Origin: a virus
Lineage: Duplodnaviria > Caudoviricetes
Strand: one strand, 5' to 3'
Virus record (IMG/VR): IMGVR_UViG_3300025030_000106
Location: 1-62,897 of that record
Length of the DNA: 62,897 nt
Below, one piece after another: positions 1 through 62,897 of the stretch (its first letter is position 1; each line of letters starts with the position of its first letter). The translations under genes and the position numbers were made by a program. The notes beneath the pieces are model-generated. The model ran no database searches. It saw only the letters and a list, made by a program, of their open reading frames with translations, and was not told the DNA's origin.

Positions 1-2
1 GA

Positions 3-281
3 AGGTTTTTCCCAAGTACGAAGCTCTGTATGGCGTGTGGTCAGCTGCATGACATGCCGTTAAATAAGAGAACTTTCCAGTGCTCTTGTAATGGTGTCTC
101 TATTGATAGAGACCTTCACGCAGCTCAAAATATACTACGGGCGGGTTGCCCGAACGTCAAGCCTGTGGAGAGAGAAGCGCTGATTCTTGGGCAATTGCCC
201 GAGAATGAAACTACTTTCTGGGAAGCAGGAAATGTACACAAATTCAATGGGTTTGAAGGAGCCCCTTGTAACTTTTTGTAA
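3..281 (+). CDS. tnpB: TnpB RNA-guided nuclease, C-terminal part (copy A, truncated by window start)
   Basis: Reads RFFPSTKLCMACG...FQCSCNGVSIDRDLHAAQNI (zinc finger plus RuvC-III Asp); near-identical to the copies at 33.2-34.4 kb and 61.8-62.9 kb. Confidence 0.9.
   Translation, partial: RFFPSTKLCMACGQLHDMPLNKRTFQCSCNGVSIDRDLHAAQNILRAGCPNVKPVEREALILGQLPENETTFWEAGNVHKFNGFEGAPCNFL
150..275 (+). ncRNA. Putative omegaRNA (scaffold plus guide) of tnpB copy A
   Basis: Overlaps the tnpB 3' end; conserved with copy B through GAAGCAGGAAAT and again at ATGRGTTTGA (ends 256), then diverges; boundaries approximate. Confidence 0.55.
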
Positions 282-300
282 GTTACATAAACCAGTCAAT

Positions 301-1050
301 ATGCTTAAAAAAATAATCGTTCTGGGGTTTCTCTTAGGGATCGCCCCAACTGTCTGGGCGCAAGGGTTCTCTACTCCGTTTGGGACTCAACCTGAGATCG
401 CGATCAGCACCGACTGCTCTTCATTCATTGCTGATGGGAAGCTCTGTTGGGATTCTGACAACGATCTGCTCTATGTTGGAAACGGTACTACCGCGGCCTT
501 GGTGGATATCACCAGCGGTGCCGACACCCCATACACTACCACCAGCACCGTAACTGACTCAATCCGCTGGAACGCTGCCGGGACAGCCGGGGATGGGGTG
601 TATTGCGGATATGCCAACCTGGTTCAGATCAACTCCGGGCCGTATCAGTATTCCATCATTTGCCAAGATAGCGACAGTTCCACCATCTACGGCAACACCG
701 TCATGCGCGACGGTTGGAACGCCGGGACGATCACTTTTGAACTTGAGTATGTCCAGACCGCCGCCGACACCGGGCCGTTGAACTCAGATATTACCTGCGC
801 CTGCCGAGGGCCGGGAGAGACGATCAACTCCACCTGGGGCACGGAGATAGCCATCGATGACGCGGCTGTGACCGGGAGCAGCGGAGTGGACCATACGACA
901 TCCGCCGCCGTGACCTGCAACGGGCCATGCGCTGCCGGGGATACCCTCTATTGGCGCTGGCAGATGGATGCGGCCGGGACCACGACCGCAGTGGCGACGC
1001 TCAACATTTTAGGCGTCAAGGCCGAGTATACTGCAATGTTGGGGGATTAA
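301..1050 (+). CDS. Tail-fibre/appendage-like protein with N-terminal signal peptide, Cys-rich
   Basis: MLKKIIVLGFLLGIAPTVWA signal; DGKLCWDSDNDLLYVGNGTT resembles a fibre N-terminal motif; beta-rich C-terminal domain. Confidence 0.55.
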   Translation: MLKKIIVLGFLLGIAPTVWAQGFSTPFGTQPEIAISTDCSSFIADGKLCWDSDNDLLYVGNGTTAALVDITSGADTPYTTTSTVTDSIRWNAAGTAGDGVYCGYANLVQINSGPYQYSIICQDSDSSTIYGNTVMRDGWNAGTITFELEYVQTAADTGPLNSDITCACRGPGETINSTWGTEIAIDDAAVTGSSGVDHTTSAAVTCNGPCAAGDTLYWRWQMDAAGTTTAVATLNILGVKAEYTAMLGD

Positions 1051-1051
1051 G

Positions 1052-3229
1052 ATGCGACGATTTCTCCATACTCTGCTGGTCGCCCTGCTGATTGCGGGGC
1101 TTGGTCTTCCTGCCAACGCTGAGCAGTTCATCGGTGGTGCTTCACAACCGCAGTTGACTGCGGACCTGATCACCTCCCTTGAGTACAAAGGTACTCCGAC
1201 CGGTGGCACCGCCACCTTCACCCGAGGTTCCGCCCGAGTCTTCGAGGACTGGGAAGGCAACTACGTCCGCACCACCAACGTAAACGAGGCAGTATTCAAA
1301 GCCCGGCGGGTAGCGAACCTGCTTGCTGCGGATTCGAGTGAGGATTTCTCGGTCGCGAGTTGGGGCACAACCTCGGCAACTGTAGCGTCTAACGGGGATG
1401 GGTCTTACAGGGTAACAGCAACAGGAGCAACCGCGAATATCAGACAAGCGGTTACAGTTTCTAGCGGAGATGTGCGGACATTCAGAAACTCCATCTGGAT
1501 TAAGCGGGCAAGCGGGACCGGGACAATATCGCTGATGGACCCAAACCTTACGGCTGTAGGTGTACCAGTAACCAGCAGTTGGGTAAGGTATAGTGTGGCA
1601 GATTTTGGGTTAGCATCGTCCGCTAATATAAGAGTTATCATAAGCACCAGCGGTGATGCAGTAGATGTAAAAAACGCTCAGCTTGAGGAAGTCACGGGCC
1701 AGAGCATAACCGCACCTTCTGAGTACAGATCAACTCACCAGTATTATGGGGGTCAACCTCATAAAGGGGTGGATTTCCTCGCATACGAGAACGGCAACAC
1801 GGTAGATGCCAACGGCGTTGTGACCGAGGCCCAGGGCGAAGCGATCCCCGAGGCCCAGCTTACCGGATACCAGTATGACGGAGCGAGCACCAACAAGATT
1901 GCCGGGGCTTACAATGCCGTTGGGCCGGATATGCTGTCCACTACGAATATCTATGCAAGCTATGATTTTACGAGTGGGTGGAGCGCAAGCAGCGCGACGA
2001 TAAACGATGCGAACACTTTTACGACTACGGGCGCAAACGGGAAGATATATAAAACAGGATCAACTAATACCGGGAAGAGATACAGGCTAACAGTCGCAGG
2101 TACGGTTTCCACCGGTGTTTTTGAGGTTAGGAGTCCTAGTACCGGAGCACTGTATATGACGGGCTTCGGAACGGTAGATTTTACGGCTGATGCGACGATC
2201 GGGCCGCTATTGCAGACCGCTACAAGTGGAGCAGTAGTAGACATCACCGCCCTCACCTTGTACGAGATCGGCGCTGCAAACCTCGCAGGCACTTTCGTCT
2301 CCGGCCTCGGCACCGGGGCAAAGAACACCGCAGCAGCTACCGCAGCTATCCCCGGCCAAACTCACGGCGGGACCGGCTCGACCACTGTCACCGATGTCAG
2401 CGCGGTAATCACCAATACCAACAAGTACAAGAGATTAACCCCAGCTACGAAGTGGTACGTCACTACGGCCAGTGGCGGGGATGCAACGGTGGACTTTACC
2501 GGGGCACTCTCTGCTGCGACGCATACCCTCTCTCTGGTTGCCTACGGGGCCACGGCAAGCGATGTGCTGACCCTCGGTACAAATACAGTCGGAGGTACCC
2601 CGCAGACCGTAACTACTGCGCCTGTGCTGTACTCGCAGACCCTGACCGCGAACGCCAGCGACACCATGCGCCTGACCGTAGCCGATGGCGACACGATAAC
2701 GTGGTGTCTGATGCAAGCGGAAACCGGCTACGTCCCAACAAGCAGAATCGTCGTGGAGGGTGCCGCTGCTTCTCGGAGTAGAGACAACTTGACCATCCCG
2801 GTTGCAGATGGCACGAACTTCAGGCAACGGGAAGGTACTGTTTCTGTTGACATTACCTGGGGGTTCGGGAGTGCGAGTATTCCTGTGGCAGCATATGTGC
2901 CAATTTTTAGTTTATCAAACAGGGTTGATTCAATTCTTTATTTACAGAATTCGGCTGGAACTGTCTACCTGCGGAACGATGATTCTACAAATGCTCCATT
3001 CGTCGCAACAGGCGCGTTCGTTACTGGAGACACTGATGCGTTAGAGACAACCTGGTCAGTAAGCAAAAATAAATTAAGGACTAAATTTAATGCAACCTGG
3101 TCTTCGGCAACTGCGTATGATGGTAGTTACAATTTAGGTACATCGTGGGTTTTAAGTTATAACGGAGCCTACCCCTTCGCCCTCAAAAACCTGCGGGTAT
3201 TAGGCACCGCTGATCCGGGAGGGATGTAA
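1052..3229 (+). CDS. Spike/fibre-like protein with carbohydrate-binding and LamG-like modules and a signal peptide
   Basis: MRRFLHTLLVALLIAGLGLPANA signal; ATFTRGS, AQLEE..PSEY and QAETGYVPTSRI..AASRSRD motifs typical of phage spike/fibre proteins; 725 aa, Thr/Gly/Ala-rich. Confidence 0.65.
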   Translation: MRRFLHTLLVALLIAGLGLPANAEQFIGGASQPQLTADLITSLEYKGTPTGGTATFTRGSARVFEDWEGNYVRTTNVNEAVFKARRVANLLAADSSEDFSVASWGTTSATVASNGDGSYRVTATGATANIRQAVTVSSGDVRTFRNSIWIKRASGTGTISLMDPNLTAVGVPVTSSWVRYSVADFGLASSANIRVIISTSGDAVDVKNAQLEEVTGQSITAPSEYRSTHQYYGGQPHKGVDFLAYENGNTVDANGVVTEAQGEAIPEAQLTGYQYDGASTNKIAGAYNAVGPDMLSTTNIYASYDFTSGWSASSATINDANTFTTTGANGKIYKTGSTNTGKRYRLTVAGTVSTGVFEVRSPSTGALYMTGFGTVDFTADATIGPLLQTATSGAVVDITALTLYEIGAANLAGTFVSGLGTGAKNTAAATAAIPGQTHGGTGSTTVTDVSAVITNTNKYKRLTPATKWYVTTASGGDATVDFTGALSAATHTLSLVAYGATASDVLTLGTNTVGGTPQTVTTAPVLYSQTLTANASDTMRLTVADGDTITWCLMQAETGYVPTSRIVVEGAAASRSRDNLTIPVADGTNFRQREGTVSVDITWGFGSASIPVAAYVPIFSLSNRVDSILYLQNSAGTVYLRNDDSTNAPFVATGAFVTGDTDALETTWSVSKNKLRTKFNATWSSATAYDGSYNLGTSWVLSYNGAYPFALKNLRVLGTADPGGM

Positions 3230-3912
3230 TGCGCTTCCGGTTCGACTGCTGGCTCATTGCCCTCGGGTGCTTATGCGGGTTGGTTTTGATCTGCAAGATA
3301 GCGCAGGGCGATACGCTGGTTGTTTCCGGCTCATGGGCTGAACGGAATTGCCACCAGGAATGGTCAATGTGGGCGCTGAATGCAGCAAGTCAACTCCCCG
3401 GCCCAACAACTGCACTCGCTACCCCGATTGGACAGGCAGTAATTGATAACGCGGTTGGAAAATCTAATTTTTACATGGCCGCGCACAGTGACCACTACAT
3501 ATCATGGCCCGGATGCGATATGGTTGATCCTTGGAAAGATGAGTTAAGGGCCGACGCATTCGATATCAAGGAGCCGTTTGATTTTGCGTTCATCGCCGGG
3601 TGCGGGGCGTTGTGCAGAACCGGTTTTGGAACTTTTGCAAACATCGCAATAGATGCGGTCGGATACTGTGACATGGCCGCGCCTCAGTGTGCGGGCTGCT
3701 GGTCTGTCAGCGCGTTGTCGTTTCAGGACTTCATGTTCATGGAAATGGCTGACGGGCGACCAGTCGGTGAGGCACACCAGGCCGCGCTGAATCGGTTTCC
3801 AGAATGTCAGGGGTGTATCAGGTACTCGCACCACGATATGCCTATTCCTACACTGGAGAAAAATCAGATAGTCATGACAATAATAGTCCCGTGGCTGATG
3901 AGGAAACGATGA
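3229..3912 (+). CDS. Exported Cys-rich protein with hydrophobic-basic C-terminal tail
   Basis: Signal-like N-terminus; ends IVMTIIVPWLMRKR; start overlaps the upstream stop (TAATG). Confidence 0.6.
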   Translation: MRFRFDCWLIALGCLCGLVLICKIAQGDTLVVSGSWAERNCHQEWSMWALNAASQLPGPTTALATPIGQAVIDNAVGKSNFYMAAHSDHYISWPGCDMVDPWKDELRADAFDIKEPFDFAFIAGCGALCRTGFGTFANIAIDAVGYCDMAAPQCAGCWSVSALSFQDFMFMEMADGRPVGEAHQAALNRFPECQGCIRYSHHDMPIPTLEKNQIVMTIIVPWLMRKR

Positions 3913-28922: not shown

Positions 28923-30884
28923 TCAATTCTTGATCTCCTGTAGTTTTTGATCCTTACATTTCTTGAGATACTCCCCTATAGCTTTTTGGCTGTGCTCCTC
29001 ACCCGGGTGCCTTATAAAATAAAGGATAACATCAGCACCACATTCAAGTCCGAGGTTAAAGCCTGCAGTAAAGCCCCGCTCGTATTCAGTCTCAGGTGTC
29101 TCGACGTCAACGCCGACTTCCTGTAACTTTTGTTTATCCACGCACTCGAACCAATAGGCGCCCCGGACGAGTGTTCCCCCCTGCCGCTTGCAACTGGAGG
29201 AGGCCAACCAAAGAGCCGAAGCAAAAATTATGGCTACCCAGAGCAAACCTAATATCCAAAGGCCTTTCATTCCTCCCCCTCCCTGACGTGGGCTTCCAGT
29301 TTCTCAAACGCCCGCCGACCATCATCACCAAACATCTGGTGAAAATCCGACAGGCCCAGGCAGTACACATACCCGGGCGACTTGAACGCCGGCTTGGTCC
29401 GGTGCCGGAGCAACAGCCCTGCCGACAGCCCCACATCCATGGCAGAGCCGTCGGCGTTCTCCTTAAGGATCTTCGAGACCATGCACTCGCTCGGAACCAT
29501 GGCGAAGACGTCATAGCCACACAGCAGCTCCGGGATATACGAGACCGAGCAAGTCTTCCCAACCTTCAGGTCGAGCACGTCGAGGACCACGTCCTTATTG
29601 ACGATGTTGATTCCGGTGACCCTGAGATTCGTCAGGATATTGGGGACCGCGCTCCCGGAGAGGATGTTGTACACGACCAACAGCTTGCCGTGGAACACCC
29701 TGACAATAGCCAGGTCACCGAACTGTGCATAGTGCCGTTGCTCATCCTGGCTCATCTGCTCGATGTAATATTTACTGATCTCGTTTCGTTCTAGAATTTT
29801 ACTCATCCTCCCACCTCCTTGGGATCTTTGAAATCCTTATGATATGGGTTCATTTTGAGCAGGAACACCTCCTCACCCTTCTCCAGCAGCGAGCCGAACC
29901 GGACTTGGATCACGTTACCGTCCTGAGAAAGCGAGCCACGTTGATATTTCTTCCACTGCAACGCCCTCGCCAGCACAACGTCGAGGACAAGGTCAACGTC
30001 GCCGTACCAGTAGCGAGTGACGCCCAGCGCCGGCAGATCGCTGAGGTTGGCTTTGAAAAAATCAAACATCTGGACCGGGCTCAGCTCCGAACACAGTCTC
30101 TCCACGGTCCTGCCCCCGACGATCTGCCCCAGGGTCTCTTCATAAAGGAAGTCTTTGTCGAGGGTAAAAAAATGATGAAGGCCATCATTCCCAGGCTCAT
30201 ACTGAAACGGGACCGTACTGGCCCGGGTGACCAGATTGAACAACACCGGCGACCGACCAAAGTATGTGCTGTAGATCCCGGCCTGGCGCCCTTCACACAT
30301 AATATCGTACTTCTCGAGTGGTTGTACTGTTGCAAAAATCATGGGCTGTTGTCTCCTATTTACGTTTCAGATGAATCGGCAAGTTTTTAACAACCTCGAC
30401 GTCAGGACAGCCGTAGGCACGTTTATAATCCTTGAGCAGGAAGTCTTCCGGGACCGTGTCGGTGACGATTTTCTCCCGTGGGAACTTGACCCAGTCGTCT
30501 TTCTTGCTGCCGAAGATGAACGGGATCAACGCCGCCATCAACTGCCCTTGCTGGTTCTGCTGCGGCACGACCCTGGCGGCGTTCTTGATCATGATATTGT
30601 CCTCGTCGTGATAGGCAACCTCGGCGATGACGCTGACGTAGCCTTCAACGAGGAGCAACTGAATCTCTGCAACTTTCTCAGCCATTTTGAACCTCCGTTT
30701 AATCTTTAAAAAGTATGACTATTAAAACCATAACAACACAAAATTCCTGAAACTCAACTTCAGCTACCGGCCGCAACCAGAAATCAGCAGCAGATGGAGA
30801 GATCACTGGCCCAACAATAACCAACAGGCCAAACAAAAAGACGCAAAAGATTGTCATATAAACTTTTCCCAAAGAATCTCCCAT
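28923..30884 (-). other. Five hypothetical CDS (28923-29270, 29267-29806, 29803-30342, 30356-30685, 30699-30884)
   Basis: Overlapping ORFs with RBS; 30356-30685 is possibly an Sm-like beta barrel. Confidence 0.55.
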
Positions 30885-30893
30885 AGCACCTCC

Positions 30894-31478
30894 TCAGTGA
30901 AGATCAAACACAACGTCATAGCCGAGCTTGACGATATCCCAGCATTTGTAGCACTCATCACACCTGCCCGGGCACTTGAAGTGAAAGTTCGGTCGGCGCT
31001 TGTCAATCGATAGCCAGGCCCGAGGGAAATCGTCAAACCCTTTCGGGTTCCGGAGCCCGGGCCACATCGACAAGATGATTGAAAAATTATCAGGGATTTT
31101 TTCCCCAAGAGGTAACAGATCCCACCGTTTTGTGAACATCATGAACTTGATGTCAGGAAAGATCCGGGCGGTTTGCATAACCCATTCAGCATAAGCAACG
31201 TCAGGCATGTCACCGCTGACATGCCAGCGGAAATGGGTCGGCCGGTGTTCTCTCAACCAAGTCTCAATTGCGATGAAATACTGTGCCGCCCCATAGGCTT
31301 GCAGGAACTGCCAGTTCTCCAACCAAGCTTTCCGCACTGACGGATACAGCCGCATCGCTTTCTGCGCATAGCATTGCTTGGCGCAGGGGACCTTCGGCCG
31401 GCAGGTCACCGCCGGCGGCAAGGAGATGTTTGGGATCTTGCCCAACTTCATGTTTCCTTTCGAGATGTGCAACTTCAC
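30894..31478 (-). CDS. Gp88-family protein (radical-SAM-like Cys cluster)
   Basis: GN.KLG..SLP...TC....C..CYA, FRWHVSGD, CPG.C..C..CW. Confidence 0.8.
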   Translation of the reverse strand: MKLHISKGNMKLGKIPNISLPPAVTCRPKVPCAKQCYAQKAMRLYPSVRKAWLENWQFLQAYGAAQYFIAIETWLREHRPTHFRWHVSGDMPDVAYAEWVMQTARIFPDIKFMMFTKRWDLLPLGEKIPDNFSIILSMWPGLRNPKGFDDFPRAWLSIDKRRPNFHFKCPGRCDECYKCWDIVKLGYDVVFDLH

Positions 31479-31713
31479 TCACTGACCTCCTCATAACTTT
31501 CTGATTCGGGATTCCAGTGGAACCCCAGTTTTACCGCTTCCTCTGCCTCCAGATCATCCAACGTCGCGATCACGTCCTCTTTCAGTTCAGCCAGGACAAC
31601 GTCGACGTCTTCGTCGGGCCCGACCTCGACCTTCATCCAGAATTCGGGCCCGATAATAACGTAGGGCTTGAGACGCACCGAGCGCTTCATCCCCATAGCC
31701 ATCTCAAGGATCT

Positions 31714-32264
31714 TCACGGCCCAGCCTCGATCGCGGACTCCAGCCCCGCGGCGAACTTGGTTAAAACCCTGCCGCGAGTGAAGGCCTTCGTGATGGCCTC
31801 TCTGACGGCGTCTTCTCGGGTCCGGCCCACCCCGGTGACCGACAGCCCCAGAAACGCCAACGAAGGAGGATTCAGCCGGCACTGAAAGGCGCCCTTCGCC
31901 ACCCAGATCAGCCCGACGTACTCGCCGTTGACGAGCACGACTTGATGGGAGAGCAGTTTATCGCCGGGGACTTTCACAAAGATGATCATGACTGCAACTC
32001 CAAAAGCTTGGCGATGAAATCAGCCTCAGCAGCCAAAGCCGCGGCGTCCCTCCTGGCGTTGCTGACAGCGTTTTGGATGGCCTCTTGTACTGTATTCCCC
32101 GAGCCGTTCATCGACATCCAGCCCGGGGCCTGGAGCAAGGAACCACACCGCAGCTGGCACTGGAAGCCAAATTGAGTGCTCCAGACCTCACCTATTTCGT
32201 CGCCGTTGACGACGACCTTCTGCCGATTGATTTTCTCCGGGGATACGTCTTTGAATTCGATCAT
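31714..32264 (-). other. Tandem paralogous small CDS (31714-31989, 31986-32264)
   Basis: Shared VNG...G..W....FQC.L and G.G.T...A...A pattern. Confidence 0.6.
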
Positions 32265-32314
32265 GTTCTGGTCCTCCTACTTTAGTTTGACATTCCTATT
32301 TGATGTTGTTAAGA

Positions 32315-32659
32315 TTACTGTACAGAAAAATTAAAATTCTGGTACACCTCCTTACATTGTGTGGCGCCAAAGAGTTTGGTGTCAAAAAAACCTGTGGGGC
32401 ATTGCAGGAATATCTTTTCTCCCTCCGAGGTAAGGACACTGCAGGTGCCATACCCATCCCCACCTGAATCTCCTGCACATGTAATCCTCTTCACTTTCAT
32501 GCCATTTTGAGAAATAAACATCTTGGCTGCCACCATCGCCCGCCGCTCGGTTGCCCCACGATTATTCAGCCCAACACCCCCGATAAGGCTGGCAAAGATG
32601 CCGACAACCGCAGCCACTAGCAGTACCTCAACTATTGTAAACCCTTTCTCATTCATCAC
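32315..32659 (-). CDS. Type IV pilin/pseudopilin-like protein
   Basis: NEKG-FTIVEVLLVAAVVGIFASL class III signal (G-1, F+1, E+5); four Cys in the globular part. Confidence 0.8.
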   Translation of the reverse strand: MMNEKGFTIVEVLLVAAVVGIFASLIGGVGLNNRGATERRAMVAAKMFISQNGMKVKRITCAGDSGGDGYGTCSVLTSEGEKIFLQCPTGFFDTKLFGATQCKEVYQNFNFSVQ

Positions 32660-32681
32660 ATCTTAACCTCTGTTTGACTGT

Positions 32682-32787
32682 TGGTGGGGCGGGCAGGATT
32701 CGGACCTGCATGAGAGCCTCTTTGTGGATTTTGGGTCTGCAGACCCCTTCTCTCGCCACGTCGCGGGTGCCATTACGCCACCGCCCC
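32682..32787 (-). ncRNA. tRNA-like element 2 (106 nt, encoded ACCA, aberrant central region)
   Basis: GGGGCGG/CCGCCCC acceptor stem plus ACCA; D arm TGGCGTAATGGCACCCGC; T arm GCAGG-TCCGAAT-CCTGC. Confidence 0.7.
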
Positions 32788-32798
32788 ACATTCCTGAC

Positions 32799-33149
32799 CT
32801 ATTTCTTCGGTTCCCTCAAGCTGTAATACTGAGACACACTGGACAGCTCCACGGCACCTTTCGACTCCAACGTCGTGACCAACGCCGCGCCGCCGAACTC
32901 TTTGATCTTGCCAAACGCGATCGTGGCCCGAGCAATGAACTCATCTTTGCCCATCTCCTTGACCACGACGTCTTTGTCGGTGACTTTCCAGTTCTCGCGA
33001 GTGTTGAAGATCAGGGTGCCATACTTGGTCTCGACCTTGCCTGGGGTCCCGTGCTCCTTGATGCACTTGGCCTGGGCCGTGTCTGCCTGTTCTTCCAGCT
33101 TTTTGATTTCGGATTTGATTCTTGCCAAATCAGTGAAGCAGCGGTTCAT
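32799..33149 (-). CDS. Hypothetical protein with coiled-coil N-terminus
   Basis: AGGAG RBS; 116 aa. Confidence 0.6.
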   Translation of the reverse strand: MNRCFTDLARIKSEIKKLEEQADTAQAKCIKEHGTPGKVETKYGTLIFNTRENWKVTDKDVVVKEMGKDEFIARATIAFGKIKEFGGAALVTTLESKGAVELSSVSQYYSLREPKK

Positions 33150-33184
33150 AGTGATTCTCCTGTTAATAGTGATTTACTTTCTAC

Positions 33185-33330
33185 GCTGATGTTACTGTGG
33201 TTTATCAAACTCATGAAGCTAATAACCCCTTCTGTTGATTTCCTGCTTCCTTGAAAGTAGTTTCGTTCCCAGGCAATTGCCCAAGAACCAGAGCTTCTCT
33301 CTCCACAGGCTTAACGTCCGGCAAACCCTG
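33185..33330 (-). ncRNA. Putative omegaRNA of tnpB copy B
   Basis: Same scaffold as copy A, ending near ATGAGTTTGA and followed by TAAACCACAGTAACATCAGCG; boundaries approximate. Confidence 0.55.
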
Positions 33331-34380
33331 CCATAGTATATTTTGAGCTGCGTGAAGGTCTCTATCAATAGAGACGCCATTACAAGAGCACTGGAAAGTT
33401 CTCTTGTTTAAAGGCATGTCATGCAGCTGACCACAACTTATACAGAGCCTTGTGCTTGGGAAGAACCTCCCCACGACGTGAACTCTAATAGATTTATAAA
33501 CGAGTTGCCTTCTAATCTCAGAAAAAGAGGCGTCTTGGATACTCTTTGCAAGACGTCGATTCTTTGCCATTCCTGATGTATTCAGATCCTCTATACAAAT
33601 GTCTGAATAGTTATCAGCAAGGTATGACGTCAACTTATGCAAAACGTCTTTCCTGACGTTACTGATTCTAGCGTGCAGAAGGCCCAGTTTCTTTTTTGCT
33701 TTTTCTCGGTTACTGCTACCTTTCTTTTTCCTGGCCAGGGATTTATTGAGCCGTCGAAGTCTCTTTTGATATTTCTTTGTCGTCTTGGGATTCTCAAAAG
33801 TTATCCCGTTAGAGAGCGCTGCCAATTTATCTATCCCAAGGTCAACGCCAACGGCTGAATACACTTGGCTATCGCTACATTCAGAGCCGTCTGGAATCTC
33901 TACCGTGATAGACACAAACCAACCTGCTGCTTCCTTACTCACCGTTGCTGACAAGAGCCGGCCCGGGAGCCTCAGAGACTCCTGCATTCTTACCCAGCCC
34001 AGCTTCGGTATCTTGATGCTCTTGCCATTGAGCTTGAAGTTTCCGTTGTCAAGATAAAAAGAGTCTTGTTGACCTTTCTTTTTAAATTTTGGGTACCTTG
34101 ACGCCTTTTTGAAGAAGTTCTTGAAAGCTTTTTCCAGGTCAGAAAATGCCCTTTGTGTAGCACACTTTGTAACTTCATAAACAAAAGGAAACTCTGACTT
34201 CTTCACAACGTTGAATTGCTTATCAAGCCCAAAAGCAGAGGGCTTCTCGCCGGCTTCATATTGCCTTTGCCACTCCACCAGACCCCAATTAAAGGCCAGA
34301 CGTCGAACGCCACAAGCTTTCTTGAAGTAGGTAGCTTGCTTATTGTTTGGCTTTAATTTTATCTTGTGGGCTCTTTGCAC
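33211..34380 (-). CDS. tnpB: TnpB RNA-guided nuclease (copy B, complete)
   Basis: GTG start MQRAHKIKLKPN; RuvC GVDLG, IEDL and DRD all intact; zinc finger. Confidence 0.95.
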   Translation of the reverse strand: MQRAHKIKLKPNNKQATYFKKACGVRRLAFNWGLVEWQRQYEAGEKPSAFGLDKQFNVVKKSEFPFVYEVTKCATQRAFSDLEKAFKNFFKKASRYPKFKKKGQQDSFYLDNGNFKLNGKSIKIPKLGWVRMQESLRLPGRLLSATVSKEAAGWFVSITVEIPDGSECSDSQVYSAVGVDLGIDKLAALSNGITFENPKTTKKYQKRLRRLNKSLARKKKGSSNREKAKKKLGLLHARISNVRKDVLHKLTSYLADNYSDICIEDLNTSGMAKNRRLAKSIQDASFSEIRRQLVYKSIRVHVVGRFFPSTRLCISCGQLHDMPLNKRTFQCSCNGVSIDRDLHAAQNILWQGLPDVKPVEREALVLGQLPGNETTFKEAGNQQKGLLAS

Positions 34381-34486
34381 GTTTCTGATTCCAGTATTTG
34401 CTTTTGCAGCTTGGGCATTTAGCCGGGCTTTTTGGCAACCTCGGGTACCACTGGTGACCACACCTGAGACACTTTAAAGTTTGCAT
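34340..34486 (-). CDS. Small zinc-ribbon protein overlapping the tnpB start
   Basis: AGGAGGTG RBS; MQTLKCLRCGHQWYPRLPKSPAKCPSCKSKYW. Confidence 0.7.
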   Translation of the reverse strand: MQTLKCLRCGHQWYPRLPKSPAKCPSCKSKYWNQKRAKSPQDKIKAKQ

Positions 34487-34507
34487 TCTTTCATCACCTC
34501 CTTTCTT

Positions 34508-34536
34508 AATATTACCCATCATGGGTAATATGTCAA
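34508..34536 (-). promoter_or_regulatory. Sigma70-like promoter with embedded palindrome, upstream of zinc ribbon and tnpB
   Basis: TTGACA (34531-34536), TAATAT at 16 nt spacing; palindrome ATATTACCCAT-C-ATGGGTAATAT (34509-34531). Confidence 0.7.
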
Positions 34537-34564
34537 CTATATTTGTGTGTCTCACACCTCCAAT

Positions 34565-37500
34565 TTATTTATCTCGCCAGACCCTGATACCACCCTCAAC
34601 CTTGCGAGCACTAAACCTTTTCGGTGCAAGCCTCTGGGTCGCCGATGAGGCTGCTCCTCTGATGCCTTTATATGCCTCGCCAATTGGAACAAAAAACGAG
34701 TCACCAACTTTCATAGATCTCCAAGGATATATTGCCTCACGCCCCGGGCCCCTCGATCTCTCAGGCTTAGTAATCCCTTTCTCGATTTTGAACATGTCAC
34801 ACCTCCCCAAAAAATTTGTTGATATGCCAGCCGATGAAGACCCCAGCCACGGTGTCGATCAGGTCCTTATTGACAGTGCTCTTGTCAATCGCAGCCCGGA
34901 TAGCCCCTGCCGGGGATTTTGACTCGACGTGAAACGTCAACGGCCCTTCAGTCCTGTGCATCAAGACGACTGTGAATTTCATTCGTTGGCCTCCTCACAT
35001 TGAGCCACGTTGGCAGCCACAGTCGAGCAACGACCCACAGTTGGGGCAATCATTCAGCTGCTGAGTGCTGATGACTCCATGGGCGATCAACCACTCCTTC
35101 GGGTCGTCAGGCCCGAGCAAGATCTCTCTGATAATTTTACTCCAAGTAGCCTCAATTTCTTGTTTGACGTCGGCGTCAATAGCATACCATTCGCGTTTCA
35201 ACCCTCTTCGGTCAGAAAGGTCCAAAATGATCGCCTCAACGGCAACGTCGATAAGTTTTGAAAATTGGTCTTCGATTTCTTTGTTCATTCTTCACCCTCA
35301 GTGTAGGTTTTGCACCACTCAAGTGCCTCAGACGCAGGGCCCGAGAACAACACCTTCTCAGCAGCATCACAGACCTCAACGTTGGGATCTCTCCCATCAT
35401 TTTCAGACACCTTATAGATGAATTCTTCCCAGACATCCCGAGTGCCCGGCGCCATCAAATAAATATGTCCGGGCTCAGTCTTGAAGTGAGCAACAACTTG
35501 AGCCGCCAAGCACCCCATCCCGTTGGCGATCCTCGGCCCATCTACCATGCTGATCCCGTTCACGATCTTCATGCCGGCCAGAAACTCGGCAAGTTCTTTG
35601 CCGTGCCCCTCCGGATAGCCATCCATCTGCCGGTACATCACAGCGAAATCCTTGCCGGTGTCGTCCACAAACACTGTTAAACTTCTTGTTCCCATTTTCT
35701 GACCTCCTACTTTAGTTTGATCCTACCAACTGGACTTGTAGTAATAATCCGCCTGATCTTCTTCATCAGAGACTCCAAAGATTGGCTTCAACTGCTCGAC
35801 AGTGTTCTCGATGTCCTGCCAGTAGCCTTCATCTATCTCAGTGCCTCCAAAGAAGAACCCGGACTGCGGCGGCAACTCATCCACGGCCACAACGTCACTC
35901 CGTTTCTTGAGAAGATTCTCACACAGATCGAGAAGCTCCCGCAGCTGCCTCCGATTGACATAGGCACGTTGACACTCGTCAACCCCATCTTGGGCGTTAT
36001 CCACGAACCATTTATGGATCGCATTTGCTTTCCGCCAATAGGCCACGCCCTCAGTTACGGATTTGACCTTGTCAGGATCCACGCCAGGGATCTTGATCTT
36101 GACTTTATCCATACCTTTGCGATAATGCCTGAACTCCTTCATTCCGATGTACGTGTCTCTCTCAAGATACATATCTAAGCCCATGGTGATCCTCCTGTTT
36201 ATTTGACGTTGATAGTGATAACAACTTTGCCGTTGACGTTGACGTCAACAACACCTTTGTACCCGGTCGCTGCTTGGATGTTATCCCGGTACTGTTTGGC
36301 CTGCTCCATCTGCCCATAGAACTTGTCCCTCTCCCCTCTGTAAATCTCAGCCAAGTTCTGAGCCTCATCCAGGTCAACTTCATACTGGGCGTTGGCAGCC
36401 TGCATCCGGTCCACGGACTCTTGCAGGAGCTTGTTTTTGTTTTTGAGATCCTTAGCCAATTCAATAGCTTCGTCGCGGCGTTCTACAACCCGGCAGAGTC
36501 TCGAGTTGAGAGACTTCACCAGAGCCACCGCTGCATCACGATCGACCTCCGATCGGTTGAGCCGCTCTTTAATACTGATCTTTTTGTCTGTCATTTTCAC
36601 TCCCTAGTAAAGTTGACTTTTTTGGATCCTTGCCCACAACGGCCGGGTCCAGCCTGAGCCCGACGTCGACAGCCACACCCGGCCCCTACCGCGGCAGATG
36701 TGACAGCCGTTTTCATCCCCAACGTTGGCGCCAAAGCCCTTGCACCGCGGGCAGTAGGTCAGGATCGCCGGTTCGGCTTTGACCTTACTTTTATTCCAGA
36801 CTTTCTCGTTTCTTGGCATGGCTATTCTCCCAGGATTCCACACGGACAAGCAGCAATCTCCGAGACTTCCCGGACCGGCCGCTTCCGCCAATGTTTGTCA
36901 AAGTCGACCTCGAACATGCCTCGGAGTTTGATCTCCTTCAATTCCGAGAGTGAGAAATACCCCCACTCTGCATTCTGCTGGTCGCCCAAGCAGACGAATC
37001 CGAAGAACGTGTCACCATCCTCGTGGTCAAATTCCGTGACCCACCAATCGCAGCTGGCCACAAAGAAGTGGCCGTGGACGATCTTGTCGCCGGTCTTGAC
37101 ATCTTTGGTTGAGTACAGTTTGGGAATTCTTTCCAGATCTCTTTTTGTCGGTTTCGCCCACATGATTGATCTCCTTTATGTTGTTGATTTTAATACGGAT
37201 TGTCCCAATTTTCATAGGCCCACTCACTGATCTCGCCGTCCTTGCACAGCCCGTCTGTGTAATCGTTCCAGGCTTCCCGGATTGCGATCTCGTCGTCTTT
37301 TCCATACTTCTCCACGACGTAAGGCAGGACGTTCTCCTCAAAGTCGGCCTGGACGTCCTCAAAGCTTCGGAAGTCGTCGTTGTCGTCTTCATACTCCTCA
37401 AGGATGACGTTGTTGAAGTGCTCGCTGGCAGCCTGGTAAATGCCGGGAATCTGGAGCATGTCATACACCTCCATACCGCTCAGGCACTCAGCCAGCCGCC

Positions 37501-40500
37501 GGTCATATTCCTTGTCCGAGATCGGACCAAATTTTGCAGTACTCATTTCTGTTCCTCCCTATGTGGGGCGCCCCACATGCTGATGTTTAATCCTCGCCCG
37601 CCATCGGCGGGTCAAATTCGTCGTCGCGCAGGCCCTGGAGCGTGATCACGTGGCCGGACTCGTCCACGGCCTCGACCTCGCAGCAGTTTGAAACTGCTGC
37701 CGGTCTGGAGTCAAAACCTTTAACCGAGCCGTATTCATATTCCCCGATCCCGAAGTCGATCACGACCACAGTACAAGGCTGACCACAACGGGTGCAGATG
37801 CCGGTCATTGCAGGCCTCTGCAAACCACCAAAGCCAGCATCGCCGCAGCCAGGAGATTTGCTATGCCCAAGAGCAACATGAACCAGGAACTCTTGATAAA
37901 CTTCTTCATGTTGATTACCCCACTACATAGAGAACTTTTTGATAATAATCCCGATGCCGTTTAGCCCACTCCAACAACCGCAACTCAGTCAGATACACTG
38001 CTTCCTCCGGGTCATGGGTGTCCAGCCCTGCTGCCTTATGCCCGAACCCATTTTTGAAGGCGTCATACGTGAACCACCCGTAAGAATAAGGGCTTGAGCT
38101 TACCACAATCCGAAAAGGGTACTCAGTCCGTATGACAATAGACCTTGGCAACGGGGTAACGGTATCCAAAAACTCAGACCGAATAATGGTCCATGTCAGC
38201 TTCGGGGTGAAAGACACCGGATTGAACGAGCCTACATTGTACTCGCCATCACAGATTCGCGGAAAGCCCCGCAAAGGTCGTAAGGACTGCTCCCAGCCAT
38301 GGACGACCACTCTGCCAGAACCGGCATTCACCTGCTCCCACCGGCCATGAGAGGCTTCCCACCCATTAGGTCCCACCACAGGCTCATACTCAAAATAAAA
38401 TATGGTATTATCAGCATTGGTAGCACTCCATTTCGCCCAAACATAAGAGTCCATCAAAATATCCTCTTTTTACTCCAGCTTTTTGATTGTGCCGTTGGCA
38501 GCCCGATAGTACAGCCGGCCCGCGTTGTGGAGATCAGCCGCGATCTCGACCAAATCGAGGATCTCGACCTCGCCAGCGGTAGCCTTGCAGGAGTTCACCC
38601 ATTCCCGGACCTTGTTAATTCTGGATTCGATCTCTTTGGCAATTTTTTCAATTGGATTAGTAAAATGAAAGTGTTTGTTAAAGGTAATTATAGTTGAAAA
38701 TGCTCCCCAAGTAAAATTTTCTTCATGATGGTAGATAAAAAGATTCCCACAGCTACAGCCCGTCAGTTTCCGGGTCGTTTCCGCATTGATGCTCTTGCCG
38801 TCGACCAAGATCGTGACGTTGCCGTTGTCATCAATGATTTTCTCGATTTTCATTTTGATCCTCCTGTCTTGAATTCCGCAATTTTGCGCAAGCCGTCGTA
38901 CCTGATAAAGACCGCTGCGCATTCCTTGGTCAGGTCCTGCTTGTTTGCCGGCTTTCCTGAATAAGGGTGGCCGAGGCTGGCGATGATAAAATCTTTGCCA
39001 GCATCAAAATCCTTTTGGACCGCTGCTTTTGATTTGTACTGCCGCCCGTAGGCGGGGGTTAATGTGATCATTTTTTGACCTCCTAATATCCACACTCAGT
39101 GCAGATGATCTTGAGCTGAGAACCATTATGGATAATGACGTTGTTGCCAAGGTTATTCCCGAAGGTAACGTGGTGACCACAATCAAGTTCGAACTTCTGA
39201 TTTTTGAGGGCATCCAGCGCCCGCCTGAGTTCACTTGCCGGCTGATACTTTGACTTCTGCGTTGCTGTCATTGTTGATCTCCTCTTGTTTCTGATTTAAT
39301 CACAAACCCTGCCGTGGACCTGAGTAGCACCCAGTCCCTGGGGAACCCCTTGTAATTCCCATTCAACCACGCTTCGTGGATCTCGGCCCGCCAGTGGCGC
39401 CCGTAAAAAGCCTTGGCTTCTCTCAGGACCTCAATTTCGATGTCGGTTGGAGTTTTCATACCCCGTCCCTCAACCTGCATGAAAATCTGATATGATTTCA
39501 GTTGGCTCTTTAAAATTCTCCGGCCGCAGTTCTTCACAGGTTGTGTGGGTTTTCAACTCCCAGATTTTCCCCTCATCACCAGTCTCCAGATTGGCTTCTT
39601 TTCTAGCTATTTCTTCTGACGGGGCTATAACCAGTTTTGCATCATAAGCGTCATATATCACATGATCAGAGATTCTGGTTAACAACCAAAACTTCATTTT
39701 CTTTTTCATCCCTTTACCTCCTCATAAACGCCCAAGATCGCGACCTCATACTGGATCTCCTCAAGAGCCTTCTCCTTGGCCTCAGCAGCGGAATCTGCTT
39801 TCAGTTCCAAATATCCGTATTGGTCATAATCAACAGTTCGGTCAGCTGACTTGATCGGAGCCACAGCCACGACATAGTTTTTCATCCCGTCACCTCCTTC
39901 TCAATTCTCCTGCAGGTCTCGATCTCACCCTGAGTTTCAAGTTCAAAGCAAATGACATATACGACGCCGTCGTCGATTCCGTTGATTTCGTAGTCAGTTC
40001 CGACCTGCTCCTCAAACTGTGTTGCAAAGGCATCCGCTTGAACAGGGGTCATCATGCCGGTTTCATATTCCATTTTTTGTCGCCTCCTTGAATTTCTCCA
40101 GAGCCAAAAAATAGTCCAGAGCCACACCGGCGCCGGCTTCTGTGTGATGAACTCGACCCCGCTCAAAAACCACAGGCACGACGGGCCCACCAAACTCGTC
40201 GCACTGGATTTCGTGATAGGTTCCGTCGCCCGGACAGACAAAGACATAAGACGTGTGCAGGCTCTCGGTTTCCGAGAACCCGGTCAACGGCACAGGATAT
40301 CCAAGCTTTTCCAGTTCTTGAATGAAACGCCAGCCGTCTTCCATCGGATATGAGCACCAAGCAGCTCCTTTGTCTTCATAAGGCTGAATATCCTCGGCGT
40401 AGTCCTCGACGTCAAGGCCCAAGGCCTTCAACTTGGTGGCGTCTTCGTCTCTGATTTCAATCCGTGCGTAAATTGAGCTGCTCATTTTACACCTCGTATG

Positions 40501-55374: not shown

Positions 55375-55404
55375 CTCATCGAGCCTATTGGAGGGCAAAC
55401 AAAA

Positions 55405-56604
55405 ATGGATAAGACAAAGGTATATTTCACCGATGCAGCAGGGCTTCGCCAGGAGGCGTCTTTTGGTCCCAGCCTGTACCGGGCCGCCATGGACAAGAAC
55501 ATGACGGTTCGGCAGTACATCAACAGCGAATTCCCGACCGCGGCCGACGCCAAGCACGACACCTTCGTGCAGATGTGCGCCTCGGCGGGCCTGCAGTTTA
55601 AGCAGGACAAGACCCTGGGCGTCAACAGCGCCCCGCTGCGGGTTATTCTTGACGGCCCGGTCAGCCCTGATGCCGCCGGCATCACCGGCAACACCAACCC
55701 GGTTCAGTCCCGCATCCTGTTCCCGGCAGCGATCCTCGAGTACATCGAGAACGCGATGGCCGTCGACCGCACCTCGGTCATCTCGGCCTTTGACCAGACT
55801 GTGGCCCTGACCACCACCGTGCCCAATGCCCGCATCGAGCGCCCGGTGATCAGCTATGCTGGTAAAGACGGCCCGCAGGACTCCCGTTCCCAGGTCATCT
55901 CTCAGTTGACCAAGCCGCCGGCGATGTTGTCCATCACCGCGTCCGAGGTCACCAAGAAGATCCCGACCCGGTCGATCGGCCTTGAGGTCTCTGATGAGGC
56001 CCTGCAGTCGACCACCCTGGATCTGGTTGGGCTGGCCCTGCGCCGGCAGACGGAGGTAGAGGGCTATGCTATGGCCGGCGAGGCGCTCATCGATATGCTG
56101 AGCGGCGACGTTGACAACGGGCAGTCTGCCCTGTCTCAGGTAAAAGCTGACACGCTGGATTCTACCATCGTGGCGGCCGGGGCGCTGACTCAGTCTGCAT
56201 GGGTGCAGTGGCTCTACACCAACCTGCAGTCCCGCCAGATCGACTGGGTCTTCACCGACCTGGCCGGCGCCCTGGCCATCGAGAACCGGACCGGCAAGCC
56301 GGTTATCACCGGGGATGATCCCAACAGTCCGCGGATCGACACCATCTTCAACATTGCCTTCCCGCAGTTGGTGAAGAATGTGAAGATGTTCATCGTGCCC
56401 TCTGACTGGGGTTGGACGGCCAACACCATCATGGGCATTCAGAGCGCCTACGCCATTCACAAGTTTGTGAATTCCTCGGCCGAGTATTCTGCCATGGAGC
56501 GATTCGCTCTGCGGAAGGGTCAGGGCCTGCGCTTTGACTTCGGCAATATGTACGAGCGTATGTTCGACGGCGCATTCTCCGTGCTGAGCTTGACGTTGAC
56601 CTAA
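55405..56604 (+). CDS. Major capsid protein
   Basis: 399 aa, position in head module, strong codon bias, downstream hairpin. Confidence 0.85.
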   Translation: MDKTKVYFTDAAGLRQEASFGPSLYRAAMDKNMTVRQYINSEFPTAADAKHDTFVQMCASAGLQFKQDKTLGVNSAPLRVILDGPVSPDAAGITGNTNPVQSRILFPAAILEYIENAMAVDRTSVISAFDQTVALTTTVPNARIERPVISYAGKDGPQDSRSQVISQLTKPPAMLSITASEVTKKIPTRSIGLEVSDEALQSTTLDLVGLALRRQTEVEGYAMAGEALIDMLSGDVDNGQSALSQVKADTLDSTIVAAGALTQSAWVQWLYTNLQSRQIDWVFTDLAGALAIENRTGKPVITGDDPNSPRIDTIFNIAFPQLVKNVKMFIVPSDWGWTANTIMGIQSAYAIHKFVNSSAEYSAMERFALRKGQGLRFDFGNMYERMFDGAFSVLSLTLT

Positions 56605-61812: not shown

Positions 61813-61816
61813 TTAA

Positions 61817-62897
61817 GTGCGAAGAGCTCACAAAATAAAGTTAAAGCCAAACAATAAGCAAGCCACTTTCTTTAAGAAAGCCTGTGGTGTCCGACGTCTG
61901 GCTTTTAACTGGGGTCTGGCGGAGTGGAAAAGACAATACGAAGCTGGGGAGAAGCCCTCTACCTCTGGAATCAGAAAACAGTTCAACGCTTTGAAGAGGT
62001 CAGATTTCCTGTTTGCTTATGAGACTCCTGCAGGAGTAACTGCCCAAGCGTTTTCTGATCTTGACACTGCCTTTAAGAACTTTTTCAGAAAGACGTCAAG
62101 GTACCCAAGATTCAAAAAGAAAGATCAACGAGATGCTTTTCGATTAGATAACCAAAAATTTAAGCTTGATGGTAAAAGTATCAGGATACCAAAGTTGGGC
62201 TGGGTAAGAATGCAGGAGTCTCTCAGACTCTCAGGTAAGCTCTTATCAGCAACGGTGAGTAAAGAAGCAACAGGTTGGTTTGTATCTATCTTGGTAGAGA
62301 TTCCAGACGGTTCTGAATGCAGCGATAGCCAAGTGTATTCAGCCGTTGGCGTTGATCTCGGGATAGATAAATTGGCAGTGCTCTCTAACGGGAGAATTTT
62401 TGAGAATCCCAAGACGACAAAGAAATATGAAAAGAGACTTCGACGGCTCAATAAATCCCTGGCCAGGAAAAAGAAAGGTAGCAATAATCGAGAGAAAGCA
62501 AAAAAGAAGCTGGGCCTTTTGCATTCTAGAATCAGAAACGTCAGGAAAGACGTTTTGCATAAGTTGACGTCATACCTTGCTGATAACTATTCAGACATAT
62601 GTATAGAGGATCTGAATACATCAGGAATGGCGAAGAACCGACGTCTTGCAAAGAGTGTTCAAGACGCCTCTTTTTCTGAAATTAGAAGGCAACTTGTTTA
62701 TAAATCTATCAGAGTTCACGTCGTGGGGAGGTTCTTCCCAAGCACAAAGCTCTGTATGAGTTGTGGTCAGTTGCATGACATGCCGTTAAATAAGAGAACT
62801 TTCCAGTGCTCTTGTAATGGTGTCTCTATTGATAGAGACCTTCACGCAGCTCAAAATATACTACGGGCGGGTTGCCCGAACGTCAAGCCTGTGGAGA
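61817..62897 (+). CDS. tnpB: TnpB RNA-guided nuclease (copy C, runs off window end; not in ORF track)
   Basis: GTG start MRRAHKIKLKPNNKQ, open to the end; GVDLG, IEDL and DRD intact. Confidence 0.93.
   Translation, partial: MRRAHKIKLKPNNKQATFFKKACGVRRLAFNWGLAEWKRQYEAGEKPSTSGIRKQFNALKRSDFLFAYETPAGVTAQAFSDLDTAFKNFFRKTSRYPRFKKKDQRDAFRLDNQKFKLDGKSIRIPKLGWVRMQESLRLSGKLLSATVSKEATGWFVSILVEIPDGSECSDSQVYSAVGVDLGIDKLAVLSNGRIFENPKTTKKYEKRLRRLNKSLARKKKGSNNREKAKKKLGLLHSRIRNVRKDVLHKLTSYLADNYSDICIEDLNTSGMAKNRRLAKSVQDASFSEIRRQLVYKSIRVHVVGRFFPSTKLCMSCGQLHDMPLNKRTFQCSCNGVSIDRDLHAAQNILRAGCPNVKPVE

Follow-up and report, generated by a model that had tools for sequence, protein, structure and literature searches.

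TnpB is the ancestor of Cas12 and a compact scaffold for genome editing, and an exact-phrase literature search indicates that its biology in phages has barely been studied. The IMG/VR record IMGVR_UViG_3300025030_000106, all 62,897 bases of which were analyzed here (the window), comes from a tailed phage and carries three tnpB-like genes, called copies A, B and C below, which raises the question of what such genes do in a phage genome. We find that the three copies are separate loci under purifying selection. As a combined description, we consider it probable that they are three tnpB-omegaRNA modules of the lineage of IS607 insertion sequences (IS) with a selfish nuclease function.

Three TnpB-type proteins with complete catalytic sites

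The tnpB-like open reading frames (ORFs) lie at 3-281 (plus strand, cut at the 5' end), 33211-34380 (minus strand, 389 amino acids) and 61817-62897 (plus strand, cut at the 3' end), as a first-pass annotation made from the sequence alone had reported. The features are as follows.

1..281, plus strand: copy A, 3' end of tnpB; last 92 codons, stop codon TAA at 279-281, gene cut by the start of the record
33211..34380, minus strand: copy B, complete tnpB; 389 amino acids, GTG start, D180, E264 and D341, zinc motif CxxC...CxC
61815..62897, plus strand: copy C, tnpB cut by the end of the record; 360 of 390 codons, GTG at 61817, 2 nucleotides (nt) inside the insertion
62727..62897, plus strand: terminal repeat and assembly break point, repeated at 1-171; 8 mismatches, then 126 identical bases

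Both B and C match the Pfam families OrfB_IS605 (E values of 6.7e-28 and 2.3e-28), HTH_OrfB_IS605 (2.4e-13 and 3.3e-13) and the zinc ribbon Cas12f1-like_TNB (1.9e-10 and 5e-11), in each case above the cut-offs; the fragment of A matches the TNB domain only. Structures of ISDra2 TnpB match at an E value of 1.5e-53 and are alignable over residues 3 to 353 (phmmer), and the B protein is nearer in sequence to them than to chain 8iaz (1.2e-44), which we take to be an IS607 TnpB. D180, E264 and D341 of B and C align to D191, E278 and D361 of ISDra2, so that the complete RuvC D-E-D triad noted earlier in these two copies is borne out. The fragment of A retains the DRD motif, and the triad is invariant in 117 of 117 homologues and kept in all three copies. 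The inactivated RuvC site that marks TldR proteins, the nuclease-dead repressors derived from TnpB, is found in none of them.

The full length of A is 397 amino acids, its 92 residues being contained exactly in the entries P0004 and P0005 of the protein collection, and P0006 (390 amino acids), identical across the 360 codons of C, is full-length C. All three ORFs are intact, at 389 to 397 amino acids. On these homologies, A, B and C are TnpB-type proteins with predicted RNA-guided cleavage that would depend on a transposon-associated motif (TAM).

Three separate loci of one phage genome

The record is classed as linear and as 78% complete (CheckV). Its plus strand encodes terminase, tail proteins and tail-assembly chaperones, and its minus strand carries a long gene block. 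Two related phages, G001 and G002, share about 80% nucleotide identity with the window over the structural genes, and in both a tape-measure ORF of more than 1,872 amino acids starts within 4 nt downstream of the tail chaperone pair. No tape-measure gene is present in the window. Window 300-503, the gene that immediately follows A, maps to position 21745 of G002, and the chaperone ends near G002 position 3258; from these map positions and the absent tape measure it follows that about 18.5 kb, the tape-measure gene included, is missing between C and A. This agrees with the completeness estimate, by which the 62.9 kb would be 78% of about 81 kb. The window covers the larger arc of a tailed-phage genome of approximately 81 kb, and the assembly broke inside the tnpB repeats. 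The two ends of the record overlap by 171 nt, with all 8 mismatches in the first 45 positions and the other 126 positions exact, the pattern expected of a contig that an assembler has ended inside a repeat.

Logan contigs were compared over window positions 30000-38000. The runs X1 and X3 are labeled as groundwater metagenomes and may include the sample behind this record, and their contigs are not independent support. In them, the flanks have a depth of about 12; at the sites that vary within the 3' portion of tnpB, the alternative letters reach about 21 to 38, corresponding to roughly two more copies; in the 5' part a single other copy is visible, 87% like B. One loose end matches the 3' end of A and another, of similar depth, codes for the C terminus of P0006. 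Run X5 gave only pieces of 33 to 220 nt over the same positions, from which no conclusion on habitat or strain was drawn. The exact proteins of B (P0124) and of C (P0006) are each found on contigs of up to 81,648 bp, and A-type proteins on contigs of 81,023 to 81,542 bp.

Since the frames of A and C join, with position 62897 and positions 1-2 making one codon, and the record ends overlap by 171 nt, the two could be taken as halves of a single gene split by linearization of a circularly permuted genome, leaving only two copies and attributing the mismatches to strain variation. We rejected this explanation, which is very improbable given 8 mismatches within 45 nt, the absence from the window of the tape measure and the roughly 18.5 kb that separate the two sites in G002, and full-length proteins that differ in length (397 and 390 amino acids), share 72% identity in the first 145 residues and have unlike C termini, together with the separate 3' ends of similar depth in the run contigs. 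The mismatched ends, the spacing in G002, the distinct proteins and the run contigs establish that A, B and C are three separate loci of one genome. All three modules are intergenic, oriented like their neighbors and placed immediately upstream of the start of the next gene.

Mosaic divergence under purifying selection

Aligned with each other, B and C need no gaps; of their 360 residues, 52 differ, and residues 1-141 account for 36 of these differences. Over codons 1-145, the synonymous divergence (dS) between them is 1.12 and the nonsynonymous divergence (dN) 0.149, as against a dS of 0.18 and a dN of 0.039 over codons 146-360 (Nei-Gojobori). The ratio of the two (omega) is 0.13 over the N-terminal third and 0.21 over the rest, and it does not exceed 0.24 in N-terminal windows of 30 codons. 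All copies are under purifying selection, with an omega of about 0.13-0.21. The protein identities also change between the two parts:

A and B: 87% in residues 1-145, 96% in residues 146-348
A and C: 72% in residues 1-145, 97% in residues 146-348
B and C: 74% in residues 1-145, 94% in residues 146-348

Outgroups are 59 to 66% identical in residues 1-145 and 68 to 74% identical in residues 146-348. The first-pass annotation had placed the divergence mainly at the segments that recognize the TAM, and the three amino acid clusters that it quoted are exactly as written; this description holds at the amino acid level only, as synonymous divergence is high over the first 145 codons. Since synonymous change extends across the whole first third, the contrast between the segments reflects differing history and not local positive selection. 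An old triplication within the lineage, followed by gene conversion of the part encoding RuvC and TNB, would be the simplest reading and fits these sequence comparisons.

Two other accounts of the mosaic were set aside. An outside donor for the N-terminal third of C is unsupported: in a collection of 5.8 billion proteins, nothing is closer to residues 1-145 of C than paralog A (72%), and the next match is at 63%. Constraint from the omegaRNA as the cause of the low dS was rejected, since the scaffold covers only the last ~150 nt and dS is low from about codon 146.

One divergent TAM pocket

In ISDra2 TnpB, the TAM contacts are reported as Y52, S56, K76, F77, Q80, T123 and N124, and the substitutions Y52A, K76A, Q80A and T123A are each reported to abolish cleavage (Nakagawa et al., PMC10097598). 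We mapped these positions through the phmmer alignment to ISDra2, at about 30% identity, in which an indel near positions 52-56 makes the first two mappings less certain:

ISDra2 Y52, position 50 of B: F in A, F in B, S in C
ISDra2 S56, position 53 of B: N in A, D in B, R in C
ISDra2 K76, position 72 of B: K in A, K in B, A in C
ISDra2 F77, position 73 of B: C in A, C in B, G in C
ISDra2 Q80, position 76 of B: Q in A, Q in B, A in C
ISDra2 T123, position 111 of B: D in A, D in B, D in C
ISDra2 N124, position 112 of B: N in A, N in B, N in C

Five of these seven residues are not the same in B and C (hypergeometric P of 8.8e-4 over the whole protein and of 0.011 within residues 1-145), in line with the earlier suggestion that the variable clusters match TAM contacts. 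This applies to C only, which by these predicted contacts is the sole outlier of the three TAM pockets, A and B sharing the TAM-contact residues (with N and D, respectively, at position 53). The TAM/guide pairs that had been proposed to be distinct could therefore be so, as regards the TAM, at most for C versus A and B. Among the 117 homologues, K72 is kept in 113, and Ser50, Ala72 and Gly73 of C each occur in none; C is also unique at the conserved positions P65, T71, G103 and Y109. From these residues, we infer that C reads a different TAM or has lost TAM reading. Its substitutions go toward small residues, which fits a loss of base contacts as well as retargeting.

Relatives of the IS607 lineage and the missing transposase

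Neither Y1 transposases (PF01797) nor resolvases (PF00239) have any match in the window, which confirms that no transposase of either kind is visible beside the tnpB copies. A scan of the whole window with Rfam at gathering thresholds likewise gave no match, that is, no curated omegaRNA, RAGATH-18 or group I intron. tnpB itself is common in phages, with matches in 445 of 50,697 phage records, all of them less than 60% identical to B and the best (44.8%) in Nodularia cyanophages. Among representative prokaryote genomes (185,579 species by the description of the collection), the best identity was 44%, with 52 loci; these relatives are taxonomically scattered and no host could be identified from them. 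Many near-identical IS copies in a host, which would have pointed to ordinary recent transposition, were thus not found.

Closer relatives are few. IMG/VR and metagenome contigs gave only L004 (65% identical; the same sequence as L076 and L078) and L077 (66%), and the large protein collection gave one further match at 69% and many at 52 to 67%. In L004, a 204-amino-acid ORF resembling MerR-type helix-turn-helix proteins and resolvases ends 28 nt inside the start of the 65%-identical tnpB, which is the IS607 arrangement; the region upstream has ACTTATAAAA repeats, followed by TTGACAGAG. A serine-recombinase tnpA, the hallmark of IS607, is thus present beside the tnpB of L004 and absent from the window, and the Y1 (HUH) TnpA of the IS200/IS605 family is absent from the window, the nearest relative using a serine recombinase. 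Because the closest outside relative adjoins a serine-recombinase tnpA and the window has no tnpA, we regard A, B and C as non-autonomous elements of the IS607 lineage.

L004:2414-4236 and L160 (record G004) carry a complete IS607-type element, with a 204-amino-acid tnpA overlapping a 382-amino-acid tnpB and the ACTTATAAAA repeats on the left. Directly upstream of this element there is another tnpB, 57% identical to B, and a second omegaRNA-like stretch is found at L004:3-87. In L077:2242-3311, on a metagenome contig of 4.6 kb, the 66%-identical tnpB is frameshifted near codon 37 and no tnpA lies upstream; as at B, an upstream ORF reads into the start of tnpB and stops at the same conserved TAA.

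The related phages are without all three insertions and have other tnpB elements or remnants elsewhere, which indicates turnover of tnpB in this lineage. Of the empty-site alleles that the first-pass annotation had proposed to look for, a clean one is present in relatives for C, and no contig joining across B was seen in X1, X3 or X5. A different tnpB (29% identical, in an ORF of 379 to 383 amino acids) lies about 2 kb from the site of B in G001 (L067:1891-3030; G001:22636-23694) and likewise in G002. The window at about 37275-37676 is without it, and no ORF of the size of tnpA stands beside it.

Left ends and insertion sites

B and C are alignable to each other only from the start codon onward, and both insertions begin about 2 to 7 nt from it. 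A clean empty site for C is found in G001, G002 and G003, and by comparison with it C begins 2 nt before its GTG, directly after the stop codon of the tail chaperone. The site of B is a replacement and not a clean insertion: relatives have an unrelated ORF of 102 amino acids there, and the window has a promoter-like site, a 48-amino-acid CxxC..CxxC ORF and tnpB. Next to the start codon, B has in common with an A-like copy only 6 nt, and no further left end:

34381..34386, minus strand: AGAAAC, the 6 bases upstream of the start codon of B, common to the presumed 5' end of A (loose end at 34379)

The block in front of B (34340-34547, minus strand) has a TTGACA..TAATAT promoter-like site whose spacer holds the palindrome TTACCCATGATGGGTAA, followed by a strong ribosome-binding site and the 48-amino-acid ORF, which runs 40 nt into tnpB. 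It is absent from G001 and G002, where the unrelated 102-amino-acid ORF is Cys-rich, and from the upstream flank of C.

In the runs, 30 letters are seen upstream of the A-like copy, and 17 of them are identical to L004:2297-2313, inside the ACTTAT-repeat left end of L004. From this match, A appears to retain a left end directly adjoining tnpB and may be a tnpA deletion derivative. Excision of the Cbo IS607 element is reported to require about 40 bp of left end (10.1101/2023.11.20.567912). No such left end is present in B or C, and for A we have the 17-nt match within the 30-nt loose end; if about 40 bp is needed here as in Cbo, B and C would not be movable by a serine TnpA. Since they have no left end, their 5' flanks are not junctions made by a transposase and cannot be read as TAMs. 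We had considered the 5' flanks as TAMs and dropped this idea, as the A-like copy has left-end sequence that B and C do not.

G003 has a related mini-element at a site that is empty in this phage:

55376..55391, plus strand: empty site in this phage; G003 has a tnpB-less mini-element of about 243 nt here

The mini-element (L062:298-540) lies between the homologues of window positions 55375 and 55392, just upstream of the homologue of 55405-56604. Its 5' part of about 85 nt is left-end-like, with a 9-bp hairpin (CAAGCATGA/TCATGCTTG) and an ACTTAA motif, and its 3' part is a complete omegaRNA-like sequence; the element follows GAGGG and ends in CCAGG. AAGTG, which resembles C, was tried as the start of the left end of this remnant and judged coincidental, as the element is readable as inserted after GAGGG, the ribosome-binding site of the capsid gene.

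OmegaRNAs, right ends and predicted guides

The scaffolds and the flanks predicted to encode the guides are as follows.

125..294, plus strand: omegaRNA scaffold of A (nhmmer E value of 3e-44; omegaRNA alignment)
33198..33346, minus strand: omegaRNA scaffold of B (nhmmer E value of 1.6e-36), ending in GATAAACCA
295..310, plus strand: predicted guide-coding flank of A; G002 homology begins here, boundary +/-1 nt
33182..33197, minus strand: predicted guide-coding flank of B; the syntenic site in G001 and G002 matches at 15 of 16 nt

The scaffold of A consists of stem-loop 1, a long-range helix, the conserved GAAGCAGGAAAT, a GGG/CCC stem-loop, a terminal hairpin GTAACTT/AAGTTAC and the terminal ATAAACCA. 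In the scaffold of B, about 22 nt that are present in A, L004, L077 and G003 are missing; these make up the GGG/CCC stem-loop and, in the terminal hairpin, the 5' arm. For the alignment of five sequences, from which the structure itself was derived, RNAalifold together with an explicit count gave 36 pairs with 93.4% of the cells paired and 11 pairs with a compensatory change; shuffled alignments were 83% paired (0 of 500 reached the observed value) and slid controls 32 to 45%. The arms of the terminal hairpin covary (GT..AC in A, CT..AG in L004, AC..GT in L077, CA..TG in G003). As expected of an omegaRNA, the scaffold is structured, shares sequence with the 3' end of tnpB and reaches to the right end of the element. 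In five of five sequences, the loop of stem-loop 1, GGUU, is complementary to the terminal AACC, with one G-U pair, and by its conservation, not by covariation, this is a candidate pseudoknot of the kind described for IS605 and IS607 omegaRNAs (10.1101/2023.11.20.567912).

At the right ends of A, B, L004, L077 and the G003 insert, the hairpin is followed by (A/G)ATAAA(C/T)CA, beyond which the sequences diverge; in the cases with a relative for comparison, homology of the flanks sets in at this point. L004, L077 and the G003 remnant finish in CCAGG at their right ends, and most IS607 elements are reported to terminate in GG (PMC13565253). For C, a 30-letter loose end runs through the stop codon and then reads TATG where B has TAAACCA, so that C may abut the tape-measure start and be without the last few bases of the scaffold.

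Because the scaffold runs to the conserved hairpin and ATAAACCA, the predicted guides start at 295 for A and at 33197 on the minus strand for B. The first-pass annotation had ended the scaffold at ATGRGTTTGA and given the strings that follow as putative guides. The letters are present as quoted, but the omegaRNA continues through them and the end was set too early: the next 38 nt of A are the conserved stem-loop, hairpin and terminal motif, and the next 7 nt of B are the terminal motif, and hence the quoted 16- to 17-mers are not guides. The supposed guide of A is a conserved omegaRNA stem-loop that is also found in L004, L077 and the G003 remnant.

The revised guide of A would cover the start of the downstream gene (ATG at 301-303), and that of B, a 16-mer, is present in the syntenic site of G001 and G002 with one mismatch, at position 13. 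The guide search that had been called for thus yields a possible target in relatives for B; apart from this syntenic site, a scan of the rest of the window and of fetched loci gave no match with two or fewer mismatches. Single mismatches at guide positions 1 to 13 are reported to abolish the activity of ISFba1 TnpB, which makes even the G001/G002 target of B uncertain. The 16-mer after the end of A has no match with fewer than three mismatches elsewhere in the window, and the flank of B is unrelated to it. We also considered a one-ended repair in which a donor ribonucleoprotein cut ectopic sites and so made B and C; this is unsupported, as it predicts similar right flanks, which are not seen.

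These guides bear on the explanation favored by the first-pass annotation, a toolkit of nucleases with differing TAM/guide pairs that benefits the phage through cleavage of competing phages or of host DNA. The purifying selection seen in all copies, the unique TAM pocket of C, the three differing guide-coding flanks and the near-perfect protospacer for B in G001 and G002 would all suit it. However, the guides are just the adjoining phage sequence, as they would be for any TnpB element, and have no other match at up to two mismatches in what was scanned, A and B have the same TAM-contact residues, and the close relatives G001 and G002 do without these copies. We consider such an adaptation of the copies to the needs of the phage improbable, and of the two possibilities offered earlier, a diversifying non-autonomous family fits better than a set of nucleases retained by the phage.

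Neighboring genes

PHROGs gave no family for the neighbors of B (32799-33149, 34340-34555 and 34995-35288) or for the two ORFs after A (301-1050 and 1052-3229). The ORF at 301-1050 has a signal-peptide-like N terminus (MLKKIIVLGFLLGIAPTVWAQG), and its start is kept in G002; with A inserted, no Shine-Dalgarno-like sequence is left before its ATG. At window 30677-30902, one X1 contig (depth of 2.3 versus about 12) has 38 other letters for these 226 bases, a minor population variant unrelated to tnpB.

Function of the modules

In the mechanism that we propose, A would be a canonical non-autonomous element (left end, tnpB and right end) movable by a serine TnpA in trans, and B and C, having lost the left end, would not transpose. 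Each TnpB would load an omegaRNA whose last 16 to 20 nt come from the flank beyond ATAAACCA, and the guide of each copy would be the start region of the next phage gene. The complex would cut DNA that joins the TAM to this flank, that is, the uninterrupted allele in a co-infecting relative, after which either the module would be copied into it by recombinational repair or the rival genome would be eliminated, with selfish retention or homing as the outcome. For IS605 and IS607, TnpB with its omegaRNA is described as cutting the transposon-free joint, and recombination as restoring or spreading the element (10.1101/2023.11.20.567912; PMC13565253). It is on this analysis that we infer a selfish or homing nuclease function.

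Several observations weigh against this function. Gene conversion alone could keep the ORFs intact without functional selection, and the absent ~18.5 kb might carry a tnpA. The K-to-A and Q-to-A changes of C equal ISDra2 mutations that abolished cleavage, so that C may be inactive rather than retargeted. The omegaRNA of B is minus one stem-loop and C seems to stop before the AAACC of the candidate pseudoknot, and the ribonucleoproteins of B and C may be impaired. At the right ends, A reads CCAG then T and B reads CCAC then A, neither being GG. The predicted guide of A has three mismatches to G002, and CAAGA, the 5 nt that directly precede the protospacer in G001 and G002, is unlike both the 5' flank of B and the AGGAG/GAGGG TAMs reported for most tested IS607 TnpBs. 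For the 5' end of A, a 30-nt loose end and a collection protein are the only sources. No contig in X1, X3 or X5 joins across B as an empty allele would, which is uninformative because rare variants drop from contigs.

Much of this would also be expected if the copies were decaying remnants of past IS607 transposition, immobile and inactive, with ORFs still open through gene conversion and the short time elapsed. The absence of the left end from B and C, the ~22-nt internal deletion in the omegaRNA of B and the apparently truncated 3' end of C, the alanines of C at positions where K76A and Q80A abolish cleavage in ISDra2, the tnpB-less remnant in G003, the frameshifted tnpB of L077 and the absence of tnpA from the window all agree with decay. 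Against it stand three intact ORFs, the retained catalytic triad and zinc motif, and an omega of 0.13 over a saturated N-terminal third that gene conversion has not homogenized, next to 0.21 over the rest; a phage under packaging constraint would moreover be expected to shed 3.5 kb of dead DNA. We consider it rather unlikely that the copies are only remnants. That all copies are under purifying selection speaks for the proteins having some role, and the damaged omegaRNA ends of B and C, like the pocket of C, speak for decay in progress.

Comparison with known systems

The modules resemble IS607 elements (CboIStron TnpB; ISFba1 TnpB, with its RAGATH-18-derived RNA) in that the nearest relative has a serine-recombinase tnpA, the right ends of relatives finish in GG and the G003 mini-element stands directly after GAGGG; tnpA-less copies are also known in the IS607 family. 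A further likeness to IS607 elements as described in 10.1101/2023.11.20.567912 is an omegaRNA that extends over the 3' end of tnpB and has successive stem-loops and a pseudoknot, here a candidate one, linking the loop of stem-loop 1 to the 3' end of the scaffold. Unlike them, the copies have no tnpA in this window, no left end in B and C and no Rfam match, RAGATH-18 included, and they reside in a phage genome. With ISDra2 TnpB of the IS200/IS605 family (PDB 8EXA and 8H1J), they share the domain order and the D191/E278/D361 triad, and A and B keep the equivalents of K76 and Q80. The Y1 TnpA and palindromic ends, however, belong to ISDra2, its zinc motif is CxxC...CxxC instead of CxxC...CxC, and C has Ser, Arg, Ala, Gly and Ala where ISDra2 has Y52, S56, K76, F77 and Q80.

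Other phages with tnpB include Nodularia and Microcystis cyanophages, Helicobacter phages and Anabaena phage A-1(L), and Nodularia phages have four to five matching tnpB places per record, some beside IS607-type recombinases. The tnpB of A-1(L) is reported to be identical to host IS copies (10.64898/2026.02.14.705889). In contrast to such recent identical insertions, the copies here are old mosaic paralogs; the recorded phage tnpBs are less than 60% identical to B (44.8% at best), and no host copies were found here. A functional analogy may be drawn with the free-standing homing endonucleases of T4-like phages (Seg and Mob), compact nuclease genes between conserved genes that are present or absent among relatives, and we propose their intronless homing and marker exclusion in co-infection as the analogue. 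Here, the target would be set by an RNA guide copied from the flank and not by the protein, and homing of these genes is proposed from the comparison. Among the categories given in a review is "transposon non-restorative homing" into co-infected phages (PMC13565253).

Significance

Phage tnpB, tnpA-less copies, several copies per phage and TnpB homing have already been published or are found in databases. Specific to this locus are the left-end-less modules cut precisely to the ORF, the conversion mosaic and the unique pocket of C. More speculatively, and on balance doubtfully, left-end-less tnpB-omegaRNA modules could be free-standing, self-programming homing endonuclease genes of phages, with guides derived from the flank and no transposase, whose paralogs remain distinct in the TAM-reading REC and WED segments and are homogenized by gene conversion in RuvC and the omegaRNA. 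If this were true, TAM specificity would be adapting to single phage loci.

The phage offers a natural three-way comparison within one genome, in which nuclease and omegaRNA cores are near identical, two copies share a TAM pocket and the third differs, and the copies also differ in the extent of transposon ends that they keep. If the proteins are inactive, the locus is a case of ordinary IS decay and gene conversion in a phage genome. If they are active, comparing A and B with C could reveal the residues that set TAM choice, and the relatives with empty sites would be a ready test of transposase-independent homing between phages.

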